Sequence record: MK562504.1
Reading direction: 5' to 3' (one strand)
DNA from: Enterobacteria phage CHB7
Length of the DNA stretch: 64,000 bases
Positions 27,689 through 46,081 of this stretch are shown here, piece by piece (within the stretch, counting starts at the first letter, position 1; the number at the start of each line of letters is the position of its first letter). Made by a program: the position numbers and the translations under genes. Under the pieces are notes generated by a model, which saw nothing but the letters and a program-made list of their open reading frames with translations, searched no databases and had not been told where the DNA came from.

Positions 27689-28801
27689 TTAGTCTTGTGG
27701 TGCAGCGTCAGAACGAACATCTACCAGCAACTGAGGACGTGTGCAGTATGGCAGCATGTAAGAGTGCGCTTCGAAGTCAATACCCTCATCACGGTCTTTT
27801 TCGTATTCGAATACGTACAGTTCCTGACCAAGAGTATTTGCGTAACCCATCTTAGGACATGGGCCATATGCAACTTCGAAGATGTTGTTAGCTTCACCCA
27901 ACATAGAAACGTTAGGGAACGCATGACCAACACCTACAGTGTTTGCTACTCCGTCGATGCTTACCAGAACGTGAGTCTTACCACGCTTATCTTGGAACTT
28001 ACCGTTGTACTGAACGAACTTCACACCACCGTAGTAGAATGTGTTCATGTGTGCCTGAACGCCATCAGTACCACCAGTTCTCAGAGAGCCAGTAATCTGC
28101 TGCCAAGCAAGTGGAGTCTGCTGTGCAAGGTATGCGTCACGAATCTTCGGATGCTTGATAAGCTTGCTGAAGAACAGACGGTCAACAACGATGTGAATTT
28201 CTTCACCGTTGATTACAGTACCAACTTTAGCTTCATCTTCCATGTGCATACGAAGTTCTTCGATAGCAGCGTCGATATCAGCGTTTGGATTGTCAAGGTC
28301 GAAGTAAACAGTCTTCTTCTCAACGTCGAACTGCTTGAACAGGTCAGCGTACAGAACACCGTTAGCGTCGATTACTTTACCCTTCAGAGCTTGCATGAAC
28401 AAGAACTCACGAGTAATATCGAACTTGGTACGAATCTTCATCAGCTTACGAGCACGAACGATAGCTTCAGTAGTCAGTTCGTTTGCAGTGCCTGGCTGAC
28501 GTACACCCTGAATTTCATCAGGAGTAATGCTTTCCACTTCCTTGAAGTACATCATTGGGAAGCTAATCTGCTTAACTCTTTCTGGAGCACTCGTCTCAGC
28601 TTTACGGCTGGTACGGTCTACTGCATCCAGTAAGCTAATGTCAGACTCAGTTAAATCCATAAGGAAAGTAGTCTGAGTAATTGGGGCAGAACGGAAAAGA
28701 CCCAAACCGGAAATATAACCGTAAGTATTTGGGATAGACTGGACTTCACCAGTCAGGTCAGCAAGGAAAAATCTGCTTTTTTCAGAATTAGTTAATGCCA
28801 T
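27689..28801 (-). CDS. major capsid protein (lambda gpE-like)
   Basis: 370 aa; follows decoration and protease genes in the lambda-like order. Confidence 0.75.
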   Translation of the reverse strand: MALTNSEKSRFFLADLTGEVQSIPNTYGYISGLGLFRSAPITQTTFLMDLTESDISLLDAVDRTSRKAETSAPERVKQISFPMMYFKEVESITPDEIQGVRQPGTANELTTEAIVRARKLMKIRTKFDITREFLFMQALKGKVIDANGVLYADLFKQFDVEKKTVYFDLDNPNADIDAAIEELRMHMEDEAKVGTVINGEEIHIVVDRLFFSKLIKHPKIRDAYLAQQTPLAWQQITGSLRTGGTDGVQAHMNTFYYGGVKFVQYNGKFQDKRGKTHVLVSIDGVANTVGVGHAFPNVSMLGEANNIFEVAYGPCPKMGYANTLGQELYVFEYEKDRDEGIDFEAHSYMLPYCTRPQLLVDVRSDAAPQD

Positions 28802-29221: not shown

Positions 29222-30574
29222 TTATTTGATAAGAGATTTCAAAGCATTCTGGAGAGCCAGTTTGCGTTGTTCTGCGGTGTCATCAGATGCGTTTTCAGAA
29301 GGTTTTTCTTCGTCAACCAGTTCTGCTTCACCGTCATTACCCATTTCTTCCATTGCGTTAGAGTGTTCCAGAACAGCACCAGCAGTTTCTTTCAGCTTAG
29401 TGATTTCGGAATCTTTCTCTGACAGTGCAGAAGCATGAGCCGCGATAGTTTCATTTAGTTTCTGGTTAGCACCTTCCATAGCATTCATAAAGAGAACACT
29501 CAGAGGGTTGTCAAGACCAGCGCCTAAGATAGCCTGAGCAGCTTCTGTTGCGTCAAACCCGAAAGCTTCAGCAGAAGCAGAAATCTTACCAGTCAGTTCA
29601 GACATAGTTTTTTCCTGTTCTTTTGCTTTCATCTGAGCAACCTGAGCGCGTAGAGCCTCTAGTTCTTGCTTTTCTTGTTCAGTCATTTCTTCACCTGAAT
29701 TGTTAACGTTTAAACTTACAGGAGCTTCATCAGAACCTTGTAAGTAATTTAAGAAATCATCTTGAGACATGATTGAATTAATTAAACCAAGTTCAAGAGC
29801 TTCCTGAGCAGAATAAACATTCGCCTCAGTATTCTTCACAGCTTCTTCGGAGATATTACGTGCATCAGCTACAAAACCTGTGAAGGTGTTATAGGTGTCA
29901 TTAATTCTCTGTTGAAGTCTTGTTTTGCTTTCTTCTGAGAGTGCTTGGAATGGGGAACCCAAACCTTTAAATTCACCAGCTTTAATAACGTTAATTGTAA
30001 CGCCATTCTTTTCAAATGCTTTAGTTAATTCTTGGTGAACCATAATTACACCGATTGAACCAACATCTGCATCCGGTGATGCAATTACTTCATCAGCAGA
30101 ACATGCAAGTGCATACGCAGCGGAACATGCGAACTCATCAACATATGCTACAATTTTCTTTTTGCCTCTGGAGGCTACGATGTGACGTGCTAATTCAAAA
30201 CAACCTGAAGCTTCACCACCACCAGAATCAACGTGCAGTACAATTGTCTTAATAGATTCATCTGCTAAAGCTTCGTCGAAGCCTCTGCGTAAACCCTCAT
30301 AAGAACTTAGACCACCAGTACACATTGCATCCATAAATGTCATACGATGTGTTAGGCCACCCATAATAGGGATAATAGCAATGTCGTCTTTAACTTTTAG
30401 AAGACTTCTTGCCTCACCTTTAGGTTTGTCGAAATTGACTGCTGCTTGAACTTCACCTAACAAGCGGTTATTTACATAAGTCGCTGCTGAGTGAGCTAGA
30501 GATTCAGTGGCTAGTAAAGGTTGGTTGAATAATCTATCAGCAAGTCTGAAGATATTCGAACTCATTTTACTCAC
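29222..30574 (-). CDS. prohead protease (S49/ClpP-like) fused to scaffold domain
   Basis: LHVDSGGGEASG and ACSAAYALACSAD serine-protease segments; C-terminal Glu/Lys-rich coiled-coil. Confidence 0.75.
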   Translation of the reverse strand: MSKMSSNIFRLADRLFNQPLLATESLAHSAATYVNNRLLGEVQAAVNFDKPKGEARSLLKVKDDIAIIPIMGGLTHRMTFMDAMCTGGLSSYEGLRRGFDEALADESIKTIVLHVDSGGGEASGCFELARHIVASRGKKKIVAYVDEFACSAAYALACSADEVIASPDADVGSIGVIMVHQELTKAFEKNGVTINVIKAGEFKGLGSPFQALSEESKTRLQQRINDTYNTFTGFVADARNISEEAVKNTEANVYSAQEALELGLINSIMSQDDFLNYLQGSDEAPVSLNVNNSGEEMTEQEKQELEALRAQVAQMKAKEQEKTMSELTGKISASAEAFGFDATEAAQAILGAGLDNPLSVLFMNAMEGANQKLNETIAAHASALSEKDSEITKLKETAGAVLEHSNAMEEMGNDGEAELVDEEKPSENASDDTAEQRKLALQNALKSLIK

Positions 30575-34936: not shown

Positions 34937-35012
34937 TTGGAGCGTCGAAAGGGAGTTGAACCCTCATAATCCTGTTTTGCAGACAGGTACATAGCCATTT
35001 CTGTCATCGACG
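34937..35012 (-). tRNA. tRNA-Cys (GCA)
   Basis: Hand-folded cloverleaf; loop CUGCAAA; encoded CCA; U73. Confidence 0.7.
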
Positions 35013-35019
35013 CATTAAA

Positions 35020-35113
35020 TTGGAGGAAGATACCAGACTTGAACTGGTACGCCGATTTCTCGGTTACTGACAGTTTAGCAAACTGTTCCCTTACCTTTTA
35101 GGGTTAATCTTCC
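35020..35113 (-). tRNA. tRNA-Ser (GCU), long variable arm
   Basis: Anticodon stem ACAGT/ACTGT, loop TTGCTAA; variable-arm hairpin CCGA-GAAA-TCGG. Confidence 0.7.
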
Positions 35114-35115
35114 AA

Positions 35116-35850
35116 TTATTTGTTCAAGGCATCCTTCATTTCTGGAGTTGCGATTGAATCAATCACACCAGTTTTACAAGCATCATCAAACCAGTCTGGT
35201 AAGACACCTGCAAGGAAACCATTAATATTAGTTTTCAAGTAATCAGCAATTAACGCTGCTTCATCTGCAATCATCTTAGTGACCTCATTAGCATATGCAG
35301 TAATCTTAGCAATGCCCTGATTAATCGCTGTAACGGCTTGTGAGGCTAAGGAAGAGATAGTGTCTAGTCCTTTATCAATTGCATCTTTTAAGTCGCTTAG
35401 AACGCCATTCACAGTGTCTATGGAGGTGTTAATCAAATCCATAGCTTGTTGACCGTACTCTGTAGCTACTCCCATGATTCCACTAAACGGTGTACAACCA
35501 ACTTGCTCTCCTGCTGCACCCATAACGTTAGAGTAACCTTTAGCTACCTGCATACGTGATGAGAACTCATCTACAGATTTCTGACCGTATTGAGTCAGTG
35601 TGTTAGTTGTCGTTGTAGTGCTTCCAAGGCTCGTTGAGAAGCTACTTAACAAGGCTGTAGTCAAACCAGCAGCAATAAGTTTATCTTTTACTGTAGGGTC
35701 TGATACCGAGCTAATAGAGCTTACTAATGAAGTAGAAGCGGCAATTGTGCCACCAAGGATTGCTGCACCAGTAATAAGAGGGTTAGAAAACCCGTTACCG
35801 GATTTCAGGAGATTAAAAATCTCTTTACCTTGTTCTGTCATCTCTTTCAT
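35116..35850 (-). CDS. hypothetical protein
   Basis: 244 aa Ser/Thr/Ala-rich protein inside the tRNA region. Confidence 0.5.
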   Translation of the reverse strand: MKEMTEQGKEIFNLLKSGNGFSNPLITGAAILGGTIAASTSLVSSISSVSDPTVKDKLIAAGLTTALLSSFSTSLGSTTTTTNTLTQYGQKSVDEFSSRMQVAKGYSNVMGAAGEQVGCTPFSGIMGVATEYGQQAMDLINTSIDTVNGVLSDLKDAIDKGLDTISSLASQAVTAINQGIAKITAYANEVTKMIADEAALIADYLKTNINGFLAGVLPDWFDDACKTGVIDSIATPEMKDALNK

Positions 35851-35867
35851 TAAGCACCTTTTGAAAT

Positions 35868-35944
35868 TGGCGGGTTAGTGGGATTTGAACCCTCTTCTCA
35901 TGTTTTTCAGACATGCGCTTTAACCATATAAGCTACTTAACCCA
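35868..35944 (-). tRNA. tRNA-Phe (GAA)
   Basis: Loop CUGAAAA; 3' end ambiguous by about 2 nt. Confidence 0.6.
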
Positions 35945-35951
35945 TTAAATT

Positions 35952-36028
35952 TGGGGTGACCTACGGGAATCGAACCCGTATAGACCATGTTCACAGCATG
36001 GGTCATTATCCATTTATGATAAGGCCAC
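35952..36028 (-). tRNA. tRNA-His (GUG)
   Basis: Loop CUGUGAA; C73; perfect T stem. Confidence 0.65.
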
Positions 36029-36059
36029 ATGTAAGGACTCTCGTAAGAACCCTTAGAAG

Positions 36060-36135
36060 TGGCAGCAGCGTAAGGATTTGAACCTTAATCTTTCAGCTTC
36101 AGAGGCTGGAGCATTGCCAGTTATGCTACACTGCT
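36060..36135 (-). tRNA. tRNA-Gln (CUG)
   Basis: Loop CUCUGAA; G73. Confidence 0.55.
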
Positions 36136-36142
36136 ATTAATT

Positions 36143-36221
36143 TGGTACTCCATATCGGATTCGAACCGATACATAACACAGATTTTAAGTCTGGCCTCTC
36201 TGCCAATTGGAGTAATGGAGC
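36143..36221 (-). tRNA. tRNA with Leu anticodon UAA, standard length (short variable region)
   Basis: Loop CUUAAAA; A73; about 79 nt, no long variable arm. Confidence 0.5.
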
Positions 36222-36223
36222 AT

Positions 36224-36299
36224 TGGCGGGGGATGTTGGAATTGAACCAACTTCTTCGATTTCAAAGACCGAGGTTTTAACCTTGTAAACTAATCCCCT
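36224..36299 (-). tRNA. tRNA-Gln (UUG)
   Basis: Stem TCGGT/ATCGA, loop CUUUGAA; G73. Confidence 0.6.
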
Positions 36300-36307
36300 T
36301 TAAATCT

Positions 36308-36865
36308 TTACTTTCTTAGTGGATGAATAAAGAATGCCAACATAATTCTTTCCCTTGAAAATGCTCTTTCTTCTGGGACAACACTTTTAAGTTTCCAACC
36401 AACATAAATTCTCCAGTAAAATTGTTTACCAAAGATTTTAATTGACGGGATAAAAGCGAATAAACCCCAAGCATTACTGTTCCACATCAGGAGATAACCT
36501 GTCTGATTATCTTCAGGGTTAGAACTTACGTTGATATTACCTTTCCACTTAGTAACATCTTTTACATCTCTTCCTAATACATGGTAAGAGAAGTTATAAG
36601 CTTTGTTTCTCCAGAGCCATCCAACTCTCTGCATATAAACACCGAGCTTACCAATCTTTCGAATCTTAGCCCATCGTTCAACGTGACCTTTGTCACCATC
36701 AATTGGGTTGTCATAAGTTTCCATCCATCTGAATCCAAAAGGTAAGTGACCTTTCTTCTCACTGTAGAATGGAACCACAAATGGTGCTAAGATTACTGCT
36801 AAGATTGCTGCAAATGGCTCTAGCAAAGCTAGGAAAATCCATGAAGCATACTTCAAATATCTCAT
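36308..36865 (-). CDS. membrane protein, hypothetical
   Basis: ATG 36863-36865 with AGAGG RBS; N-terminal hydrophobic segment; track ORF extends upstream from TTG into tRNA-Arg. Confidence 0.5.
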   Translation of the reverse strand: MRYLKYASWIFLALLEPFAAILAVILAPFVVPFYSEKKGHLPFGFRWMETYDNPIDGDKGHVERWAKIRKIGKLGVYMQRVGWLWRNKAYNFSYHVLGRDVKDVTKWKGNINVSSNPEDNQTGYLLMWNSNAWGLFAFIPSIKIFGKQFYWRIYVGWKLKSVVPEERAFSRERIMLAFFIHPLRK

Positions 36866-36885
36866 TTTAAATAGCCTCTTTAAAT

Positions 36886-36962
36886 TGGTGCAGAATAAGG
36901 GATTCGAACCCCTAACAAACAACTTCGTAGGTTGCTGCTCTATCCGTTTGAACTAATTCTGC
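36886..36962 (-). tRNA. tRNA-Arg (ACG)
   Basis: Loop CUACGAA; perfect 7 bp acceptor GCAGAAT/ATTCTGC. Confidence 0.65.
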
Positions 36963-37124
36963 AATGTTCTTTTGAGATTCCTGTCTAGCTCTCTTCTTAT
37001 CTCTTCTGAGAAAGCGTCTACGATGGTCTGTACGCCATTTGTAGTAATCTTCCTCACCAGCGTGAGAAGCACAGCAACCACAACTTGCAATTTCAACTTT
37101 ACCGTGTCTACCATAAGGCTTCAT
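36912..37124 (-). CDS. small basic Cys-containing ORF overlapping tRNA-Arg (doubtful)
   Basis: ATG with AGGAG RBS right after the preceding tRNA; last 51 nt overlap tRNA-Arg. Confidence 0.3.
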   Translation of the reverse strand: MKPYGRHGKVEIASCGCCASHAGEEDYYKWRTDHRRRFLRRDKKRARQESQKNIAELVQTDRAATYEVVC

Positions 37125-37140
37125 AGGAATCTCCTAAAAT

Positions 37141-37218
37141 TGGTGTTCCAAGACGGATTCGAACCGTCACTAATACAAGGTTTGAGCTTGCATCCTCTGC
37201 CAATTGGGATACTGGAAC
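37141..37218 (-). tRNA. tRNA with Leu anticodon CAA, standard length (short variable region)
   Basis: Stem GCAAG/CTTGT, loop CUCAAAC; A73; D-arm similar to the UAA tRNA. Confidence 0.5.
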
Positions 37219-37220
37219 AT

Positions 37221-37295
37221 TGGTACTCGCTGAAGGACTTGAACCTTCTTCACCAACTTGTAAGGATGGGGCTTTACCATATAAACTAAGCGAGT
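37221..37295 (-). tRNA. tRNA-Val (UAC)
   Basis: Loop CUUACAA; A73. Confidence 0.6.
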
Positions 37296-37391
37296 ATGAA
37301 AAGAGGTCTGAAGTTGTGCCGCTAACTCAACTCCGTGGAATTTGTTACGGTCTTCAGTTGACTCAAGCGGTCTTTCACTCGACCTCTGAAA

Positions 37392-37468
37392 TGGTGCTGC
37401 TCACAGGACTCGAACCTGCATTTCCATCCTTACAAGGGATGTGTAATAGCCAATTATACGAAAGCAGC
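37392..37468 (-). tRNA. tRNA-Thr (UGU)
   Basis: Stem CATCC/GGATG, loop CUUGUAA; A73. Confidence 0.65.
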
Positions 37469-37474
37469 ATTGTT

Positions 37475-37549
37475 TGGAGCATCCAGAGGGAATCGAACCC
37501 TCAACCTCAGTTTGGAAGACTGTAATTTTCCCGTTTAAACTATGGATGC
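37475..37549 (-). tRNA. tRNA-Gly (UCC)
   Basis: Loop CUUCCAA; U73; perfect T stem. Confidence 0.65.
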
Positions 37550-37555
37550 ACTAAT

Positions 37556-37631
37556 TGGTGGAGAAGCAGGGAATTGAACCCTGTACTTAAGTTTGCAAAA
37601 CTTATGTTTTAACCATGTAAACTACATCCCC
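37556..37631 (-). tRNA. tRNA-Ala (UGC)
   Basis: Stem TAAGT/ACTTA, loop UUUGCAA; G3-U70 wobble pair; A73. Confidence 0.7.
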
Positions 37632-37637
37632 AATGTT

Positions 37638-37713
37638 TGGTACAGGTGGAGGGAATTGAACCCATCGTCTTACTGATTAAGAGTCAGCCGCATAACCATT
37701 TTGCTACACCTGC
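37638..37713 (-). tRNA. tRNA-Lys (CUU)
   Basis: Loop CUCUUAA; A73. Confidence 0.55.
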
Positions 37714-37720
37714 ATTAATT

Positions 37721-37798
37721 TGGTAGGAGACAAGGGATTCGAACCCTCAAACACCAACTTCTAAGGATGGTAGGTTTACCAATTACCGTCAATCTCCC
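37721..37798 (-). tRNA. tRNA with Leu anticodon UAG, standard length (short variable region)
   Basis: Loop CUUAGAA; A73; about 78 nt. Confidence 0.45.
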
Positions 37799-37866
37799 AT
37801 TAAATCTTTGTAGAGAACTGCTAAGACGCCAAAGCAACAATGGTATCAAATGCCTTAACAATTCTC

Positions 37867-37887
37867 TAAAAAGACCTAACTGGTCTT
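37867..37887 (-). terminator. hairpin downstream of nuclease gene (weak terminator)
   Basis: AAAGACC-loop-GGTCTTT followed by U-rich tail on the minus strand. Confidence 0.35.
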
Positions 37888-38026
37888 TGCATAGTCTTGT
37901 TTAATCCGGTGACTAGAACCTTTGGAGAGCTTGATATTATCTCTTCTCCGTGACACCTACTAGGTGCTTTGTTGTGCGTGTACGACAATACACGAGGGAA
38001 ACCGAACGCTGTACCAGAGCGTGGGC

Positions 38027-38368
38027 TTAAATCTTTAAGCTAAGTTCAGTCTTGGACTTGACATCTTTAGCTTTGTAGATGACGACTTTATCAAGTGGTT
38101 CAATGTAAACAGCTAAGTAATCAACTTGAGAGTTATCAAAATTCATTATTCTATTTTCATTCTTGTTAGAACGAACTCTTTTCAGTTGCACTCTCCAAAG
38201 TTCACCTCTTTTGACTGATGTTGATTTTACCTCAACAGTCTCAATCAAACCATCTTTGTGAACTAGAAAGTCATACTTTGCATTATCTGTAGCTGGTGAA
38301 TACACTTCATAACCTCTTTTGAGGAAAGCTAATTGTGTAGCAATTTCACCTACTGAACCTTTCTTCAT
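38027..38368 (-). CDS. PD-(D/E)XK nuclease-like protein embedded in tRNA cluster
   Basis: ATG 38366-38368 with AAGGTGGTGA RBS; YDFLVHKDGLIETVEVKS resembles a D...ExK nuclease core. Confidence 0.5.
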   Translation of the reverse strand: MKKGSVGEIATQLAFLKRGYEVYSPATDNAKYDFLVHKDGLIETVEVKSTSVKRGELWRVQLKRVRSNKNENRIMNFDNSQVDYLAVYIEPLDKVVIYKAKDVKSKTELSLKI

Positions 38369-38390
38369 AATCACCACCTTAAAATTATTT

Positions 38391-38477
38391 TGGCAGAGAG
38401 TGCAGGAGTTGAACCCGTACCGTTTCCAGCAGCACCAGTTTTCAAGGCTGGTTGGTCTCCGTTGACCGCCACTCTCT
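38391..38477 (-). tRNA. tRNA-Ser (UGA), long variable arm
   Basis: Loop CUUGAAA; perfect acceptor AGAGAGT/ACTCTCT; G73; 87 nt. Confidence 0.65.
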
Positions 38478-38490
38478 CCGAAACAATCTT

Positions 38491-38573
38491 TGGCATGGGA
38501 CGGAGGAATCGAACCCCTTTGAGTAAGTTTTGGAGGCTTACGCACATGCCTTAGTGTCTTAACATCGTCCCAT
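38491..38573 (-). tRNA. tRNA-Trp (CCA), atypical 83 nt with enlarged D region
   Basis: Anticodon hairpin GTAAG-(C)CUCCAAA(A)-CTTAC; perfect acceptor; G73; extra nt between acceptor and D stem. Confidence 0.45.
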
Positions 38574-38715
38574 ATATTATTTCGAAGCTTACCGTATTAT
38601 CACAACACTGTAAAGCCCCTTCTCAGATTATTTACATGTTCTGGAAAACATGAGATACAGACCACCTCCCTACAGGAAGACCCGCTTAGGTCGTCTAAGT
38701 AATCTGCTAACTATT

Positions 38716-38743
38716 TGGTAGCCAAGGTAGGAGTCGAACCTAC
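38716..38743 (-). pseudogene. tRNA 3' fragment (CCA + acceptor + T arm only)
   Basis: TGG-T-AGCCAAG followed by T arm GTAGG-AGTCGAA-CCTAC; no matching 5' acceptor strand found within 100 nt. Confidence 0.4.
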
Positions 38744-38842
38744 TTACTCTCGAAGGTAGCTAACCTTCAGTAACTTTCCGACTTTCGTACATCTGTTAAC
38801 ATGTATTCAGATGGCTTACTAGTGTTGTCTTGACCATTAAAC

Positions 38843-38919
38843 TGGCACACCCTACAGGACTCGAACCTGTAACTCAGTGCTTAGAAGGCACTTGCTCTAT
38901 CCAATTGAACTAAGGGTGC
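38843..38919 (-). tRNA. tRNA-Arg (UCU)
   Basis: Loop CUUCUAA; G73. Confidence 0.65.
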
Positions 38920-39170
38920 ATTCTTATCTTTAAAGGCTCTCTTAGAAAACCCTTAAAGATGCCCACATTATTAATCATACCGTGGGCGAGTACGCCAAAT
39001 TCTTTGATGAGGGGTTGGAAGACCTCACTGGTGTTTAGCCTATTAAGCTACTGCCAGAAAAACATTATCGTTTGCATTTATTTTAGTTTGCAAAAATAGA
39101 CGCTACGCTAACGAAAACTAAGGTTACTATAAAGTGGTCACATCTGAATGTCAACAACTTTATCGAATTT

Positions 39171-39246
39171 GGTAGTGGTAGCAGGAATCGAACCTGCGAT
39201 GTTCGGTTATCAGCCGAGTGTTATGACCGTCTTAACTATACCACCA
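39171..39246 (-). tRNA. tRNA-Ile (GAU)
   Basis: Loop CUGAUAA; A73. Confidence 0.6.
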
Positions 39247-39248
39247 TT

Positions 39249-39325
39249 GGAGGTTCAGATGGGATTCGAACCCACATTCATAGGGCTTATGAAACCCTTG
39301 CATTACCTTATCTGCGACTGAACCA
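39249..39325 (-). tRNA. tRNA with CAU anticodon (Met or Ile2)
   Basis: Stem AGGGT/GCCCT, loop UUCAUAA; U73. Confidence 0.55.
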
Positions 39326-39403
39326 TAATAAGTTGCCCTTTGGAGAAGAACTATTGAGTGGGTGTTTCCAGCCGCGCAGGTGTTCTTCAGTTAAGGGCTA
39401 ATT

Positions 39404-39479
39404 TGGTAGGAGTGGAGGGATTCGAACCCTTCGCCTGTCAGATTAAAAGTCTGCCGCATCACCATTCTGCTACACTCCC
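39404..39479 (-). tRNA. tRNA-Lys (UUU)
   Basis: Loop CUUUUAA; A73. Confidence 0.6.
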
Positions 39480-39735
39480 ATTGAATCATCTTTGCAGTAA
39501 CCTACGCAAACCTTGCTAAAGGGTTTGTAGAGTCATTTCCTATTAAGCTAATCTAGAATCATGCTAAGGAAATTCATCGGCACTCATGGGACGACATTTA
39601 GCTCCATAAGTCACTGCAAAGAGGATTACCAGACCGTTGTTTATCTTAAGTGCTCCCATTACACCAACACGCCGTAACGTGTGAAGGAATCGAACCTTCG
39701 CCTTTTCTTTACCAGAGAAATAGATTGTTTTATAC

Positions 39736-39765
39736 TTGCTGTAAACGGTCTTCTGTAAATTTGTT
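39736..39765. repeat. inter-tRNA spacer repeat (TGCTGTAAACGGTCTTCTG family), copy 1
   Basis: Same about 20 nt word recurs at 40281-40306 and 40440-40466; CCAGACC word recurs near 39639, 39787, 40238, 40395. Confidence 0.6.
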
Positions 39766-39906
39766 GAGCCAGACCAAGTTTTAAATTTTTCAAAATTAAA
39801 TTGGCTTGAAATTTTTTAAGTTGGCTTGCTGAATTTGGTCTTCTGCTCCTTTAAAGAACACTCGTAAGAACTCTTTAAGGGAGGGGCTAAAAAGCCCTCT
39901 CAAATT

Positions 39907-39984
39907 TGGCGGTTACGAAGGGATTCGAACCCTCATCATCTCCCGTGACAGGGGAGTATTTTAACCAGATTAAACTACATAACC
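39907..39984 (-). tRNA. tRNA-Asp (GUC)
   Basis: Perfect stem CTCCC/GGGAG, loop CUGUCAC; G73. Confidence 0.7.
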
Positions 39985-39990
39985 TTTATT

Positions 39991-40078
39991 TGGTGCGCCG
40001 TGAAGGAGTCGAACCTACCGAGTCATAATGACAAGTGATTTACAGTCACCACCGCTTCCATCTACGGGATAACGACGC
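39991..40078 (-). tRNA. tRNA-Tyr (GUA), long variable arm
   Basis: Loop CUGUAAA; 88 nt; A73. Confidence 0.6.
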
Positions 40079-40148
40079 ATTTTATTCCATTCAGGCTAAG
40101 GACTTGCACCTTACAAATCGGTGAGCATTACGCTTCTCTCCCAAATCT

Positions 40149-40225
40149 TGGCGGTGAGTTAGGGATTCGAACCCTATGCCATTCGGTTAACAGCCGACCG
40201 CACATGCCTTATGTGCTTCCTCACC
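40149..40225 (-). tRNA. tRNA-Asn (GUU)
   Basis: Loop CUGUUAA; G73; perfect T stem. Confidence 0.65.
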
Positions 40226-40306
40226 ATGTTTAGTATTGCCAGACCGTATCTTTTCATTTTTCCTATAAAAATTTTTGAGATTGCTGTAAACGGTCTTCTG
40301 CAAATT

Positions 40307-40383
40307 TGGAGGCGGGTGCAGGAGTCGAACCTGCCGATACCATGCTAATGAGACATGTGAGACGCCCTTTCTCTATACCCGCG
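40307..40383 (-). tRNA. tRNA with CAU anticodon, unpaired 1-72 (C-C)
   Basis: Loop CUCAUUA; first acceptor pair is a C-C mismatch; U73. Confidence 0.5.
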
Positions 40384-40466
40384 AACTTTTATGACCAGAC
40401 CAAACTTTTAAGTTTTCTATGCGCGAAAAGTAAAGTTGTTTGCTGTACTTGGTCTTCTGTCAAATT

Positions 40467-40541
40467 TGGAGTCGTAGACGGGATTCGAACCCGCGAGCAA
40501 CTGATTGAAGGTCAGGTGGCTAACCATTTGCCTTCTACGAC
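40467..40541 (-). tRNA. tRNA-Glu (UUC), tentative
   Basis: Stem CTGA/TCAG, loop CCUUCAA (C at position 33 is unusual); perfect acceptor. Confidence 0.45.
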
Positions 40542-40548
40542 ATTAATT

Positions 40549-40625
40549 TGGTCTCCGTTGAAGGGATTGAACCTTCGACCTCACCGCCCCAAACGGCGCA
40601 CTCTACCAAACTGAGCTAAACGGAG
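40549..40625 (-). tRNA. tRNA-Pro (UGG)
   Basis: Loop UUUGGGG; C1-G72; A73; perfect acceptor. Confidence 0.7.
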
Positions 40626-40791: not shown

Positions 40792-42207
40792 TTACCAGAT
40801 GTAACGGTCAATCATTACTGCTTTGAGCATTACGCTGATTGGGTCAAACTTCTCACCACCAAGCAGAGCTTTTAAAGTGGCTGGAGAGAACCCTGATACC
40901 ATTGCTACCCCATTATCCTTAACAGACACTTCGCAAGTACCATTACGGTTTGCTAAGTACCAGAATACCAGTTGTGGCATTTCGTATCCAGCTTTTTCAT
41001 ACTTACTGCGAATTGCTTCGAAGTTTGTATGGCCATCTGCACCGTCAACCTGATTGAACTCCATATCAGAGAAGATAATAAGCTTACTTGGCATTGCTGC
41101 CTGAGTCAAGCCATTTCTTACACCGATTTCAAGAATACGGTCAAATGCTGCTTGCAGGTTTGTTGAACCATACTCAACCTTGTTCATTACCTGACGCATA
41201 CGAGTCTGCAAATCACCACTCAGAGTAATAAAGTGAGGTCTTGTGGAGTAAACCATTAACTCATCTTTAAAGCACCCTGTATTGCGTTCTGAGACGTATA
41301 ACGCCAAAGACAGGCCAATATCAAGAGCAGTTACAGAACCAAATGTCTGCCAAGTCATAGACGCTGATACATCTGACATACACAGAATGTTTTCACCTTC
41401 TGCCATCCAGTTTGGTAATGCTTTCCACTGTTCGTTTGCAACACTTGCTTTACCATGATTAACGGACTTCAGAATATCGTATGGGTACACAGCACCAGCA
41501 TTAATCTTGGCCTCACCTTTGGATAAAGCTTCAACGTAAGCTGCATAACGTTCACCGTCTTTCTTGCTGAACAGCTTTTGATAACGTGCAGCAGCCAGTG
41601 AAGGAATCTTGCTGTAGTCAATCTCACCAAAGTTATTTGTAGAGATTTTCTGTTCAACGGTATCAGACAAAGCTGATAACAGTGTACGGTATTCTTTCTC
41701 ACTCAGGCTTGCAAACTTACAGAAACGTTTTACAAACTGTTTGTGTCGTGGTTTTACTCGTGGTAACCACTTAGCCGCTAAACCTGCTGTATCAGGGTCT
41801 AACAAGGCTGCTTCTAAATGCTTGAAAGCATCTGTCTCATAACGAGTACCTACGAAGATTTTGAAGTCATCGAAACGACCTAATTCAGAAATCTTATCCA
41901 TGATACGAAGAACTTGGAAAGAATCCAGAATGTTATCTTCGATTGCTTGTAAGAGGACAGTTCGGAAAGCTTTACGCTCACCCATACCTTCTCGTACATC
42001 TCGCATATGCAGTAAAATACGAACTGCTACATCAACATCCTCACGCAAAGCTTTGTAGAACAAGTCTGGGAGAATCTCTACATTGCCACGGCTTGAGCCA
42101 GCAGCTTTATAGAAGTCTACCAAGGCAGACATTGATGATGTATGGTTAACAGCACCATTTTCAGTTCGCCCTGCATGGAGGTGCGAATGTTTAAATAAAT
42201 CGCTCAT
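40792..42207 (-). CDS. vWA-domain protein with MIDAS motif (DUF2828/TROVE-like?)
   Basis: 471 aa; DxSxS MIDAS motif in LCMSDVSASM; N-terminal RTENGAV segment; purine-rich RBS. Confidence 0.6.
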   Translation of the reverse strand: MSDLFKHSHLHAGRTENGAVNHTSSMSALVDFYKAAGSSRGNVEILPDLFYKALREDVDVAVRILLHMRDVREGMGERKAFRTVLLQAIEDNILDSFQVLRIMDKISELGRFDDFKIFVGTRYETDAFKHLEAALLDPDTAGLAAKWLPRVKPRHKQFVKRFCKFASLSEKEYRTLLSALSDTVEQKISTNNFGEIDYSKIPSLAAARYQKLFSKKDGERYAAYVEALSKGEAKINAGAVYPYDILKSVNHGKASVANEQWKALPNWMAEGENILCMSDVSASMTWQTFGSVTALDIGLSLALYVSERNTGCFKDELMVYSTRPHFITLSGDLQTRMRQVMNKVEYGSTNLQAAFDRILEIGVRNGLTQAAMPSKLIIFSDMEFNQVDGADGHTNFEAIRSKYEKAGYEMPQLVFWYLANRNGTCEVSVKDNGVAMVSGFSPATLKALLGGEKFDPISVMLKAVMIDRYIW

Positions 42208-43868: not shown

Positions 43869-43913
43869 GTATTTCGGGGCGAAAGCCCCTTTTTAATTAT
43901 TTAAGGATAGATA

Positions 43914-44288
43914 ATGAAGGCGAAGAGTGGAAAAGACTTTTACTGCTTCCTACAATCCTATGTACAAACAATTGAAGAAGGTGAGAGATATAATCTTAAT
44001 GATGTTCTCCCAACTCCTTTAACGTGGCGTACTAGTCAATGGCCTGAAACGGATATCCCACCAACCACTGCAACCTTCAAATACACTCCTAAAATTGACC
44101 TACCAGATTCTGAAGAATTACTCTACCCAATGTTCCACATTGTCGGTCTAGGTACTTTCCTTATGGATATTCAGTATGTGATGGGTAAGGGATATAAAAT
44201 TGAAGGTGTAGTTCTTGGTGATGTCTCTCCACAACACAAAGGCTACTTCAGATTAAATGCAAGATTAGAGGCTAATAAAAATGATTAA
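43914..44288 (+). CDS. hypothetical protein, paralog of N-terminal domain of the next gene
   Basis: Shares ...FLMDIQYV... core with N-terminus of 44281-45165 (...FFMDLQYA...). Confidence 0.5.
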   Translation: MKAKSGKDFYCFLQSYVQTIEEGERYNLNDVLPTPLTWRTSQWPETDIPPTTATFKYTPKIDLPDSEELLYPMFHIVGLGTFLMDIQYVMGKGYKIEGVVLGDVSPQHKGYFRLNARLEANKND

Positions 44289-45165
44289 GGCAAAAACATA
44301 TCCAGACTTCAAAGAGTTCGTTAAAGGCTTTATTGCGAACGTTAAAGCTGGTAAAAGATATGACTTCAGAACATATCAAGAAGCAATTCTCCCACTGACT
44401 TACAGTTCGCCTTGGCCTGAAGCAGATATTGCAGAGGTGACCAACTTTGCTTATGAGCCAGCATATACAGTCCCATTCAGTCCAGAACTTCTTTACAGTG
44501 TTGGTGCTCAAATGAGAACTGCTGATTTCTTCATGGATTTGCAGTATGCAATCATCAACGGTAAAGATGTTGATACGGTTTACTGTGAATGGCTTGCAAG
44601 AGTTAAACCTTTCTCAATGCTGAACGCAAAACTGAAAGATTCTGTAGTTCCTCCAGTAATCACTACACAGCCAACTAACCAGACTGTTAATGAAGGTGGT
44701 ACGTTGACTCTGAGTGTTGTTGCAACTGGTGCTACAGGTTATCAATGGAAGAAAGGTGCAAGTAACATCTCCGGTGCAACGTCTGCAACTTACACAAAAA
44801 CAAACGTAGTCCCTGCTGATGCTGGTTCTTACACTTGTGTAGTAACTGGTGAAGGTGGTGCAACTGTAACGTCAAACGCTGCAACTGTGACGGTGAATGC
44901 TTTACCAGTAATCACTACACAGCCACAAAACGTTGAAATCACTGAAGGTGACACTCTTGAGTTGAGCATTGTGGCTACTGGAGCAACTGGTTACCAGTGG
45001 AAGAAAGGTGCTGACAACATCTCTGGAGCAACTTCAGCAACTTACACAAAAGAGAATGCAACAACTGCTGACGATGCCGGAACGTACACTTGCGTAGTTA
45101 CTGGTGCAGGTGGTTCTGTAACGTCAAACGCAGCTACTGTTGTGGTTAACGAAGTAGGAGGTTAA
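44281..45165 (+). CDS. protein with two tandem Ig-like domains
   Basis: Two about 80 aa repeats (PVITTQP...GATGYQWKKGA.NISGATSATYTK...AG.YTCVVTG.GG..TSNAATV.VN) with the G-x-Y-x-C Ig-like signature. Confidence 0.6.
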   Translation: MIKAKTYPDFKEFVKGFIANVKAGKRYDFRTYQEAILPLTYSSPWPEADIAEVTNFAYEPAYTVPFSPELLYSVGAQMRTADFFMDLQYAIINGKDVDTVYCEWLARVKPFSMLNAKLKDSVVPPVITTQPTNQTVNEGGTLTLSVVATGATGYQWKKGASNISGATSATYTKTNVVPADAGSYTCVVTGEGGATVTSNAATVTVNALPVITTQPQNVEITEGDTLELSIVATGATGYQWKKGADNISGATSATYTKENATTADDAGTYTCVVTGAGGSVTSNAATVVVNEVGG

Positions 45166-45167
45166 TA

Positions 45168-45632
45168 ATGCAACTCTCTGATAAGGGGCTTGCAGCAATT
45201 AAGTTTTTTGAAGGGCTTCGTCTAGAAGCCTATAGAGACTCTGCTGGAATCCCAACAATCGGGTACGGTACAATCCGTATTGGTGGCAAGCCTGTTACGA
45301 TGGGTATGAAGATTACTGCTTCACAAGCTGAACAGTATCTGCTTGCAGATGTTGAAAGCTATGTTGGGGCGGTAAACAAAGCTATCAAGGTTCCAACCTC
45401 TCAAAATGAGTTTGATGCTCTCGTTGTAGAAACTTACAACATTGGTATCACAGCCATGAGAGACTCAACTTTCATCAAGCGTCATAATGCTGGTAACAAA
45501 GCTGGCTGTGCTGAAGCTATGCAGTGGTGGAACAAGGTAACGGTCAATGGTAAGAAAGAAGTTTCTAAGGGTCTGCAAAACAGACGTCGCTTAGAAGCAA
45601 AAATTTATCTTGACGCTGTTTATCCGAAATAG
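45168..45632 (+). CDS. endolysin, T4-type lysozyme (GH24)
   Basis: KFFEGLRLEAYRDSAGIPTIGYG segment (catalytic E..D..T pattern); strong RBS AGGAGG. Confidence 0.85.
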   Translation: MQLSDKGLAAIKFFEGLRLEAYRDSAGIPTIGYGTIRIGGKPVTMGMKITASQAEQYLLADVESYVGAVNKAIKVPTSQNEFDALVVETYNIGITAMRDSTFIKRHNAGNKAGCAEAMQWWNKVTVNGKKEVSKGLQNRRRLEAKIYLDAVYPK

Positions 45633-45640
45633 TAGATTTA

Positions 45641-45668
45641 GAGGCTCCTTCGGGAGCCTTTTTTATTT
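45641..45668 (+). terminator. rho-independent terminator
   Basis: AGGCTCC-TTCG-GGAGCCT hairpin followed by TTTTTTATTT. Confidence 0.7.
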
Positions 45669-45670
45669 CT

Positions 45671-46081
45671 ATGGAGAAAACTATGAAGATTTGGGCTAGT
45701 GATGTTGGAACTTTCAAATACACCCGTAGTGGTATGAAGGTTCGTATCAGTGGAAGCAAGGTTGTAACGTTAGGCGACAAGGTTTACAGCAAGTTTATCA
45801 TTGAGGTAATTGAACGCTCTCCTATCACGATTGCCAACAATGCTTTCTATGTAGGGAGTATGTACAACGTGGATGGTGAAGGTCTGTTCAGTCCACTTGG
45901 TGAGAGTGGTTTAGACATTATTTCAGAACACCCCTTGACAAGAGAACAACTTTCCGGTTACTATAAAAGCCTACTTGAGAAGCAGAAAGCTTTGCATCAG
46001 GGTGAGGCTAATTACCACAACAACCAGTGCATTAAGCTTCTGGACAAGATTGAAAAAGCTGAGAGAGGTTATTATGAATAA
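45671..46081 (+). CDS. hypothetical protein
   Basis: 136 aa ORF. Confidence 0.5.
   Translation: MEKTMKIWASDVGTFKYTRSGMKVRISGSKVVTLGDKVYSKFIIEVIERSPITIANNAFYVGSMYNVDGEGLFSPLGESGLDIISEHPLTREQLSGYYKSLLEKQKALHQGEANYHNNQCIKLLDKIEKAERGYYE

Follow-up and report, generated by a model that had tools for sequence, protein, structure and literature searches.

A predicted hexamer decoration protein and its capsid-binding-domain-only paralogue directly upstream of the endolysin gene in the Felix O1-like phage CHB7

Two overlapping genes of Enterobacteria phage CHB7 raise the question of what a protein with tandem Ig-like domains does directly upstream of the endolysin gene and apart from the structural genes, and of what role is played by the small protein encoded just before it, which resembles its N-terminal domain. 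The genes were analyzed within a window of 64,000 nucleotides of the phage (record MK562504.1), the term window being used here for this whole stretch of DNA. It was concluded that the larger protein (294 amino acids, aa) is very probably Hex-Dec, a capsid decoration protein, and that the smaller one (124 aa) is a tandem duplicate of its capsid-binding domain (CapBD) alone, which is under selection and dispensable; we hold this reading as a whole with high confidence. The features on which it draws are the following, with coordinates counted from the first nucleotide of the window.

27689-28801, minus strand: major capsid protein, the putative partner of the CapBD (9ncf_A, E 3e-235; 9c2d_A, E 3e-232; phrog_29, major head protein)
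43876-43899, plus strand: terminator-like hairpin directly 5' of the paralogue, GGGGCGAAAGCCCC followed by a T run
43914-44288, plus strand: CapBD-only paralogue, 124 aa, 14.3 kDa, phrog_4463, 100% identical to CHB7_gp94
44281-45165, plus strand: predicted Hex-Dec / Sf14 gp20 orthologue, 294 aa, 31 kDa, pI 4.7, phrog_3995
44281-44640, plus strand: CapBD of Hex-Dec (aa 1-120), with about 90% identity to the CapBDs of Sf14 and Bas63
44653-44904, plus strand: Ig-like domain 1 (aa 125-208), from Pfam and direct repeat alignment
44905-45162, plus strand: Ig-like domain 2 (aa 209-294), from Pfam and direct repeat alignment
45168-45632, plus strand: endolysin, a GH24 phage lysozyme (PF00959, E 6e-39; phrog_7 endolysin, E 6e-57)
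45640-45671, plus strand: terminator-like hairpin 3' of the endolysin, with a 9-bp stem and then a T run, at the end of the putative paralogue/Hex-Dec/endolysin unit

A 2.9-kb region of the locus was found to share 95.9% DNA identity with the Escherichia coli phages SUSP1 and SUSP2, which belong to the genus Suspvirus of the Ounavirinae, and about 80% with genomes of Mooglevirus and Felixounavirus; DNA matches were obtained in 241 phage records. The window is taken by its sequence to be that of a Suspvirus, a Felix O1-like myophage near SUSP1. Both open reading frames (ORFs) were recovered as the initial annotation had placed them, at 43914-44288 (124 aa) and 44281-45165 (294 aa) on the plus strand. 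They overlap by 8 nt (ATGATTAA), the Hex-Dec start overlapping the paralogue stop, and the endolysin starts 2 nt past the Hex-Dec stop codon. The annotation had also placed the larger gene outside the structural operon and immediately 5' of a lysozyme gene, and this held: the structural module occupies 11468-34508 on the opposite strand, running from the tail fibre to the large terminase, a cluster of 24 tRNAs lies between it and the locus, and the PF00959 gene is at 45168-45632. Some 9.8 kb separate the Hex-Dec gene from the closer end of the structural module, and some 15.5 kb separate it from the gene for the major capsid protein. In Bas63 the Hex-Dec gene lies >10 kb outside the structural module, and this odd gene position has already been remarked on (PMC12609058); by a term search, the paralogy is not discussed in either structural paper. 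Antisense ORFs inside both genes (e.g., 44272-44511 on the minus strand) were deemed spurious, since the coding sequence that they overlap is strongly conserved.

The C-terminal part of the 294-aa protein had been described as two Ig-like repeats with a G-x-Y-x-C signature, and two tandem repeats were indeed found at aa 125-208 and 209-294. By direct alignment they are 77% identical in protein and 76% identical in DNA, and each carries the signature as GSYTC or GTYTC. Pfam assigned Ig_3 (E 5.6e-21), Ig_2 (E 1.7e-15), and I-set (E 6.5e-15), each in two stretches, and these matches are far above chance. Tandem Repeats Finder did not report the Ig repeats, whose 252-bp units are 76% identical and contain indels. 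The Ig part (aa 116-291) also matched "Hoc-like head decoration" PHROGs (E 7e-28 and 1e-27).

Full-length matches of the 294-aa protein were obtained to the Bas63 Hex-Dec chain 9ncf_S (E 2.4e-215), to the Sf14 gp20 chain 9c2d_S (E 5.3e-174), and to phrog_3995 (E 8e-164). Residues 1 to 120 align end to end with both chains, and amino acid identity over the CapBD is 0.89-0.90 to the CapBDs of Sf14 and Felix O1. In the alignment to the solved chains, the two capsid-contact arginines are kept, in AQMR(79)TADFF and WLAR(107)VKP, and the major capsid protein encoded in the window is about 93% identical to 9ncf_A and 9c2d_A with the KIRD(221)AYL motif kept. Orthology, domain layout, and the contact residues in both partners were established here for CHB7 itself. 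On these sequence comparisons the 294-aa gene is assigned as the orthologue of the Ounavirinae hexamer decoration protein Hex-Dec (Sf14 gp20), to which it is alike in CapBD (about 90% identity), in Arg79 and Arg107, in Ig type, in gene place, and in its near-identical capsid partner. The number of Ig-like domains differs, with two in the CHB7 protein versus three in Sf14 gp20 and four in Bas63 Hex-Dec; this variation has already been described in both papers, with 1 to 4 among Felixounavirus genomes (PMC12609058).

What these proteins do is documented in the relatives. Mass spectrometry detected Sf14 gp20 in particles, and a model of it on the capsid was built (PMC11821841; PDB 9c2d/9c3a). It is a monomer that binds with its N-terminal 118 residues in the middle of the pentamer-proximal hexamers on a T=9 capsid, where Arg79 and Arg107 contact Asp221 of the capsid protein, and its Ig-like domains reach outward as in T4 Hoc (PMC11821841). 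Bas63 Hex-Dec was modelled on the capsid with the same architecture (PMC12609058; PDB 9ncf), and in both phages the monomers were located by cryo-EM at the centres of 60 capsid hexamers (PMC11821841, PMC12609058). For Felix O1, the 31.6-kDa Gp36 is present in CsCl-banded virions and was called the "major tail protein" without localisation (PMC3185647); ORF36 adjoins the lysin ORF35, as verified from the gene order. The suggestion in the initial annotation that the Ig protein decorates the virion is therefore borne out by its orthologues on the Sf14 and Bas63 capsids and in Felix O1 virions. Virion proteomics and structure had been named as ways to check it, and both have been answered in orthologues, the former by mass spectrometry of Sf14 gp20 (PMC11821841) and by Felix O1 Gp36 (PMC3185647) and the latter by the capsid models of Sf14 gp20 (9c2d/9c3a) and Bas63 Hex-Dec (9ncf). 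The capsid location of the CHB7 protein would follow from these relatives, with a CapBD about 90% identical. The 294-aa gene is in this respect already known: capsid decoration has been published in the relatives, and SUSP1 gp121 and CHB7 gp95 were named as homologues with only two Ig-like domains (PMC11821841).

By analogy, the CHB7 protein would resemble T4 Hoc in being a monomer at the hexamer centre with a projecting string of Ig domains, acidic and non-essential. Unlike Hoc, whose capsid-binding domain is C-terminal, the CHB7 protein carries its CapBD at the N terminus, and the domain order is reversed. The CapBD is also larger than the domain of Hoc, has another topology, is pseudo-C2 symmetric, and shows no sequence similarity to it (PMC12609058). 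Because the domain order is reversed and the two capsid-binding domains are unrelated, Hex-Dec is a functional analogue of T4 Hoc and not a member of the Hoc family. The Ig domains are homologous to that of T5 pb10 (PDB 5lxk and 8zvi; E 5e-10 and 3e-10), but pb10 has one Ig domain and the matches span only aa 124-207 of the CHB7 protein; no similarity to the capsid-binding domain of pb10 was detected in a sequence search with the 294-aa protein. A stronger match than that to pb10 was obtained between the Ig repeats and the Aureispira grappling-hook protein GhpA (9flp_A; E 2e-47). The matches to GhpA and pb10 would fit an Ig class that has passed promiscuously between phages and bacteria.

The arrangement proposed for CHB7 is as follows. 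As a monomer, the CapBD of about 120 aa would plug the centre of each hexamer adjacent to a pentamer, 60 in all on a T=9 capsid, with contacts like those of Sf14 between Arg79 and Arg107 and Asp221 of the major capsid protein, and the two C-terminal Ig-like domains would extend away from the capsid as an acidic, flexible fibre. By analogy with Hoc, this fibre presumably lets the particle adhere weakly to glycans, to mucus, or to the surfaces of cells, or else controls aggregation, a role also proposed by both structural papers. Hex-Dec would be made late, together with the endolysin, in a small unit between two hairpins and apart from the head and tail genes.

Support for such a unit was sought in the surrounding sequence. 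A hairpin scan of the region found 3 against 2.5 expected in shuffled sequence, a total not above chance, and on its own the hairpin 5' of the paralogue is a weak candidate for a terminator; a comparable hairpin is present at the matching place in phage mio and in a divergent, 87-kb metagenomic contig (L007). A sigma-70 promoter scan of the region gave 7 sites against 7.7 expected, with nothing above chance, and no promoter is therefore claimed. The hairpin and the ribosome-binding site take up nearly the whole 45-bp gap before the paralogue, and the gene is therefore probably transcribed by read-through from upstream. The hairpins, the tight spacing, and the overlapping codons suggest that the paralogue, Hex-Dec, and the endolysin form one late unit; because the promoter scan was at chance level, the transcription unit was deduced only from the hairpins and the tight spacing. 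Translation of the paralogue is probably coupled to that of Hex-Dec.

For the 124-aa protein, the paralogy that had been noted with the N-terminal domain of its neighbour was confirmed by its alignment to aa 2-119 of the 294-aa protein (34% identity, E 4e-16), and each of the two proteins matched the PHROG family of the other (phrog_4463 and phrog_3995). The 124-aa protein itself matched phrog_4463 (function unknown) over profile positions 1-122 of 123 (E 4e-75), and a Pfam scan gave no match and no Ig domain. In phmmer searches it matched 9c2d_S (E 6e-15) and 9ncf_S (E 1e-11) over aa 2-119. A usable AF2 model was obtained only from a 13-sequence alignment and was of moderate quality (pLDDT 71, pTM 0.72), the single-sequence model (pLDDT 38) being unusable. 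In a Foldseek search of this model against the PDB, only 9ncf_S and 9c2d_S were found at E<=0.001, with TM scores of 0.58-0.59 and a probability of 1.00. The predicted fold of the paralogue is that of the Hex-Dec CapBD, as judged from a model of moderate quality.

The paralogue is known under the names Felix O1 ORF37, Sf14 gp21, VpaE1 ORF40c, and CHB7 gp94 and is also present in Bas63. By tblastn, 252 phage records were matched in 488 places, and it was deduced from these counts that 236 of the 252 carry both copies and 16 carry one. In the 16 the paralogue is lost, decayed, or fused, and it is therefore not essential for plaque formation. Phage mio retains only a decayed remnant in a 192-bp gap, and in SP3_SHan-2021 the first 48 residues of the paralogue are fused to Hex-Dec at a common WPE-DI motif. 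This chimera was considered as a natural domain swap and set aside, being a single record that may be an assembly or isolate-specific artefact. An intact ORF is retained across Felixounavirus, Mooglevirus, and Suspvirus, and its dN/dS of 0.04-0.18 against SUSP1, Sf14, and Felix O1 is similar to that of the neighbouring genes. The 124-aa paralogue is a real gene under purifying selection; this selection, the paralogy, and the synteny are direct observations of the present analysis. The synteny of the paralogue is preserved in 236 of the 252 records and on the divergent metagenomic contig. Hex-Dec lies upstream of the endolysin also in SUSP1, Sf14, Felix O1, mio, SP3, and the metagenomic contig, where the order is a 195-aa protein, the paralogue (122 aa), a protein of the Hex-Dec type (298 aa), and the lysozyme. 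The orthologues on this contig are 44% and 59% identical to those compared here (44% for the paralogue), and the paralogues are 31-36% identical to each other. As the orthologues are closer than the paralogues, the duplication is older than the split from this contig, and from then on each copy has had an evolutionary history of its own.

When 1.8 billion representative proteins were searched exhaustively with a profile, only 12 members of the CapBD family were returned, among them the two neighbouring proteins on the metagenomic contig; the family is therefore narrow. In its more distant members the CapBD is joined to Big_2-like Ig classes or to a Lys/Ser-rich tail, and the family alignment contains 32 invariant columns. 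Position 79, the place of the contact arginine Arg79 in Hex-Dec, is occupied by Gly in nearly all paralogues, and their position 107 holds Gln, His, or Arg. An argument that the paralogues have lost both contact arginines was considered and is weakened by the variable position 107 and by the distant CapBD-Ig proteins, in which Arg79 is not universal; the residue argument is therefore only suggestive.

In the literature, no published function or discussion was found for the phrog_4463 paralogue. A term search of both structural papers (PMC11821841, PMC12609058) found no occurrence of "paralog", and "gp21" is absent from the Sf14 main text and refers in the Sf14 supplement only to SPP1 gp21 (PMC11821841). 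The paralogue is the only under-described part of the locus.

As to its role, the 124-aa gene is an old tandem duplicate of the CapBD alone, and our best guess is that its product still touches capsid-protein hexamers, transiently or sparsely, for example in procapsids or on hexamers free of Hex-Dec, and would not be a stoichiometric part of the mature virion. It may thus be an accessory protein that interacts with the capsid protein, transiently or at low occupancy during assembly, an assignment that we make with low confidence. In both cryo-EM papers no density was observed on the other hexamer class (PMC11821841, PMC12609058), and the selective occupancy of the 60 pentamer-adjacent hexamers is left only partly explained by both. 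A bolder version, which we rate as rather unlikely, is that the paralogue is an overlooked third capsid-interacting protein of the Ounavirinae, either capping the 20 true 3-fold hexamers in its bare form or acting, at the hexamer centres of the procapsid, as a transient placeholder or competitor that confines Hex-Dec to the 60 pentamer-adjacent hexamers.

If the paralogue were a true second decoration at hexamer centres, a bare cap for the 20 hexamers on true 3-fold axes, which Hex-Dec leaves free, and if icosahedral averaging had smeared it, several observations would agree with this. Its predicted fold is that of the CapBD, it is under purifying selection, and it would be co-expressed and probably translationally coupled with Hex-Dec. 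The change of Arg79 to Gly, together with Gln, His, or Arg at position 107, could fit a different hexamer conformation, as the Asp221 side chains are shifted within Sf14's true 3-fold hexamers (PMC11821841). The averaged maps count as weak negative evidence, because the imposed symmetry would smear a monomer on a true 3-fold hexamer. The virion lists speak against such a cap. In the Felix O1 virion proteome Gp36 is listed and Gp37 is not, though proteins of 9.7-13.7 kDa were detected (PMC3185647). For VpaE1, with 22 virion proteins, the main text names gp54, gp58, and gp68 as proteins absent from the Felix O1 list; ORF40c is not among these extras there, though similarly small proteins were detected, and is "hypothetical" in the annotation table. 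Table 1 of the Sf14 paper does not list the paralogue either (PMC11821841), and 16 of the 252 genomes have lost the gene or carry it in decayed form. From this weak negative evidence, together with the lack of density on the other hexamer class and, suggestively, Gly in place of Arg79, it was concluded that the paralogue is probably not on the virion, at least not stoichiometrically, and a second decoration of this kind is considered distinctly unlikely.

It is very unlikely that the paralogue is a functionless leftover of the tandem duplication. Its dispensability would suit such a relic, as would the remnant in mio, the fusion in SP3_SHan-2021, and the 16 single-copy records among 252. Such a relic is contradicted by the dN/dS values, which are like those of the neighbours, and the ORF is intact across three genera and on a contig where it is only 44% identical; the 32 invariant columns point the same way.

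A lysis-cassette role of the pair, for instance that of an endolysin partner with a cell-wall-binding or regulatory function, was weighed because both genes are co-linear with the lysozyme gene and almost abut it between two hairpins, a synteny conserved in all relatives examined. However, mass spectrometry and cryo-EM show the Hex-Dec orthologue to be a stoichiometric constituent of the capsid, and for neither protein did the Pfam scans suggest a function in the membrane or in lysis. By Pfam, the endolysin is complete in itself, a GH24 enzyme of one domain, and co-transcription of two late functions suffices to explain the position beside it. Because of the virion evidence for the Hex-Dec orthologues, a lysis role is held to be highly improbable.

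Least credible of all is a tail protein or fibre as the identity of the 294-aa protein, although most of its records in GenBank and RefSeq carry such a label ("tail protein," "putative tail protein," or "tail fiber protein"), as does phrog_3995 ("tail protein"), and although the matches of its Ig domains to the Ig parts of major-tail-protein PHROGs might suggest it. Against it, the label seems traceable to the Felix O1 paper, in which Gp36 was named without localisation (PMC3185647), the N-terminal domain of the orthologue is at capsid hexamer centres in two cryo-EM structures (9c2d_S and 9ncf_S), the "tail protein" annotation found in most genomes is explicitly called wrong in the Bas63 paper (PMC12609058), and the window has its own, separate genes for the tail sheath, the tape measure, and the tail fibre.

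For the main gene, the assignment as Hex-Dec is corrective in value rather than novel, as most genome records and the PHROGs still say tail protein or fibre. A Hoc-like capsid decoration would be a useful display scaffold and is relevant to therapeutic Felix O1-like phages in mucus. For the paralogue, the finding is that of a capsid-binding module free of payload, kept by selection beside the full-length gene in most Ounavirinae genomes. Such a CapBD-only protein could be relevant to the question why, of the two hexamer classes in the T=9 capsid, Hex-Dec decorates only one, and, if it proved to be a third capsid-interacting protein, it would explain the selective occupancy by Hex-Dec.

The Ig repeats of Hex-Dec, the capsid decoration protein (window 44653-45162), were compared with solved structures. 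The top non-phage match was GhpA, a grappling-hook protein of Aureispira (9flp_A, E 2e-47), which was aligned to the repeats over 15 matched stretches. Animal Ig domains and T5 pb10 both matched far less strongly.

The paralogue, an Ig-less copy of the capsid-binding domain (CapBD) of Hex-Dec encoded directly upstream of the Hex-Dec gene, was altered in some relatives, and only one CapBD copy was present in 16 of the 252 related records. Two such loci were as follows.

L004 2501-3379, Salmonella phage SP3_SHan-2021 (MW296865.1): lone "tail protein", a paralogue/Hex-Dec chimera
L005 2307-2497, Escherichia phage mio (MN850631.1): decayed paralogue remnants in a 192-bp gap upstream of Hex-Dec

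Both the start and the end of the paralogue are still recognizable as decayed remnants in the mio gap, and this locus is a case of natural loss of the paralogue gene. The chimera, found in the single SP3_SHan-2021 record only, is of the paralogue type at aa 1-48 and of the Hex-Dec type from aa 49 onward, with the junction at the shared WPE-DI motif and no separate paralogue gene left beside it. It looks like the product of recombination between the tandem CapBD copies.

Three further features of the window were recorded.

29222-30574, - strand: 450-aa ORF in the head module, with a match at E 2e-115 to "head maturation protease" in PHROG
34938-40625, - strand: cluster of 24 tRNA genes, flanked on one side by the large terminase gene and on the other by the divergent region that precedes the paralogue/Hex-Dec pair
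40792-42207, - strand: 471-aa ORF adjoining the tRNA cluster

According to the Bas63 paper (PMC12609058), the beta-tulip decoration protein of relatives has been misannotated as a "tail protease". Homologues of the 471-aa ORF in relatives are labeled "RNA-binding protein", "vWFA protein" or DUF2828 (pfam11443), and a gene for a putative RNA-binding vWA protein lies beside the tRNA array.

A frameshift within the first Ig domain of the Hex-Dec variant P0053 (209 aa) leaves CapBD followed by a nonsense tail; the protein may be naturally truncated, or the frameshift may be an error of sequencing. Distant CapBD homologues were found fused to a Big_2-like Ig domain (P0057 and P0058), to a different Ig domain (P0061), or to a Lys/Ser-rich low-complexity tail (P0060). 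Since these homologues carry other payloads, CapBD behaves as a portable capsid anchor.
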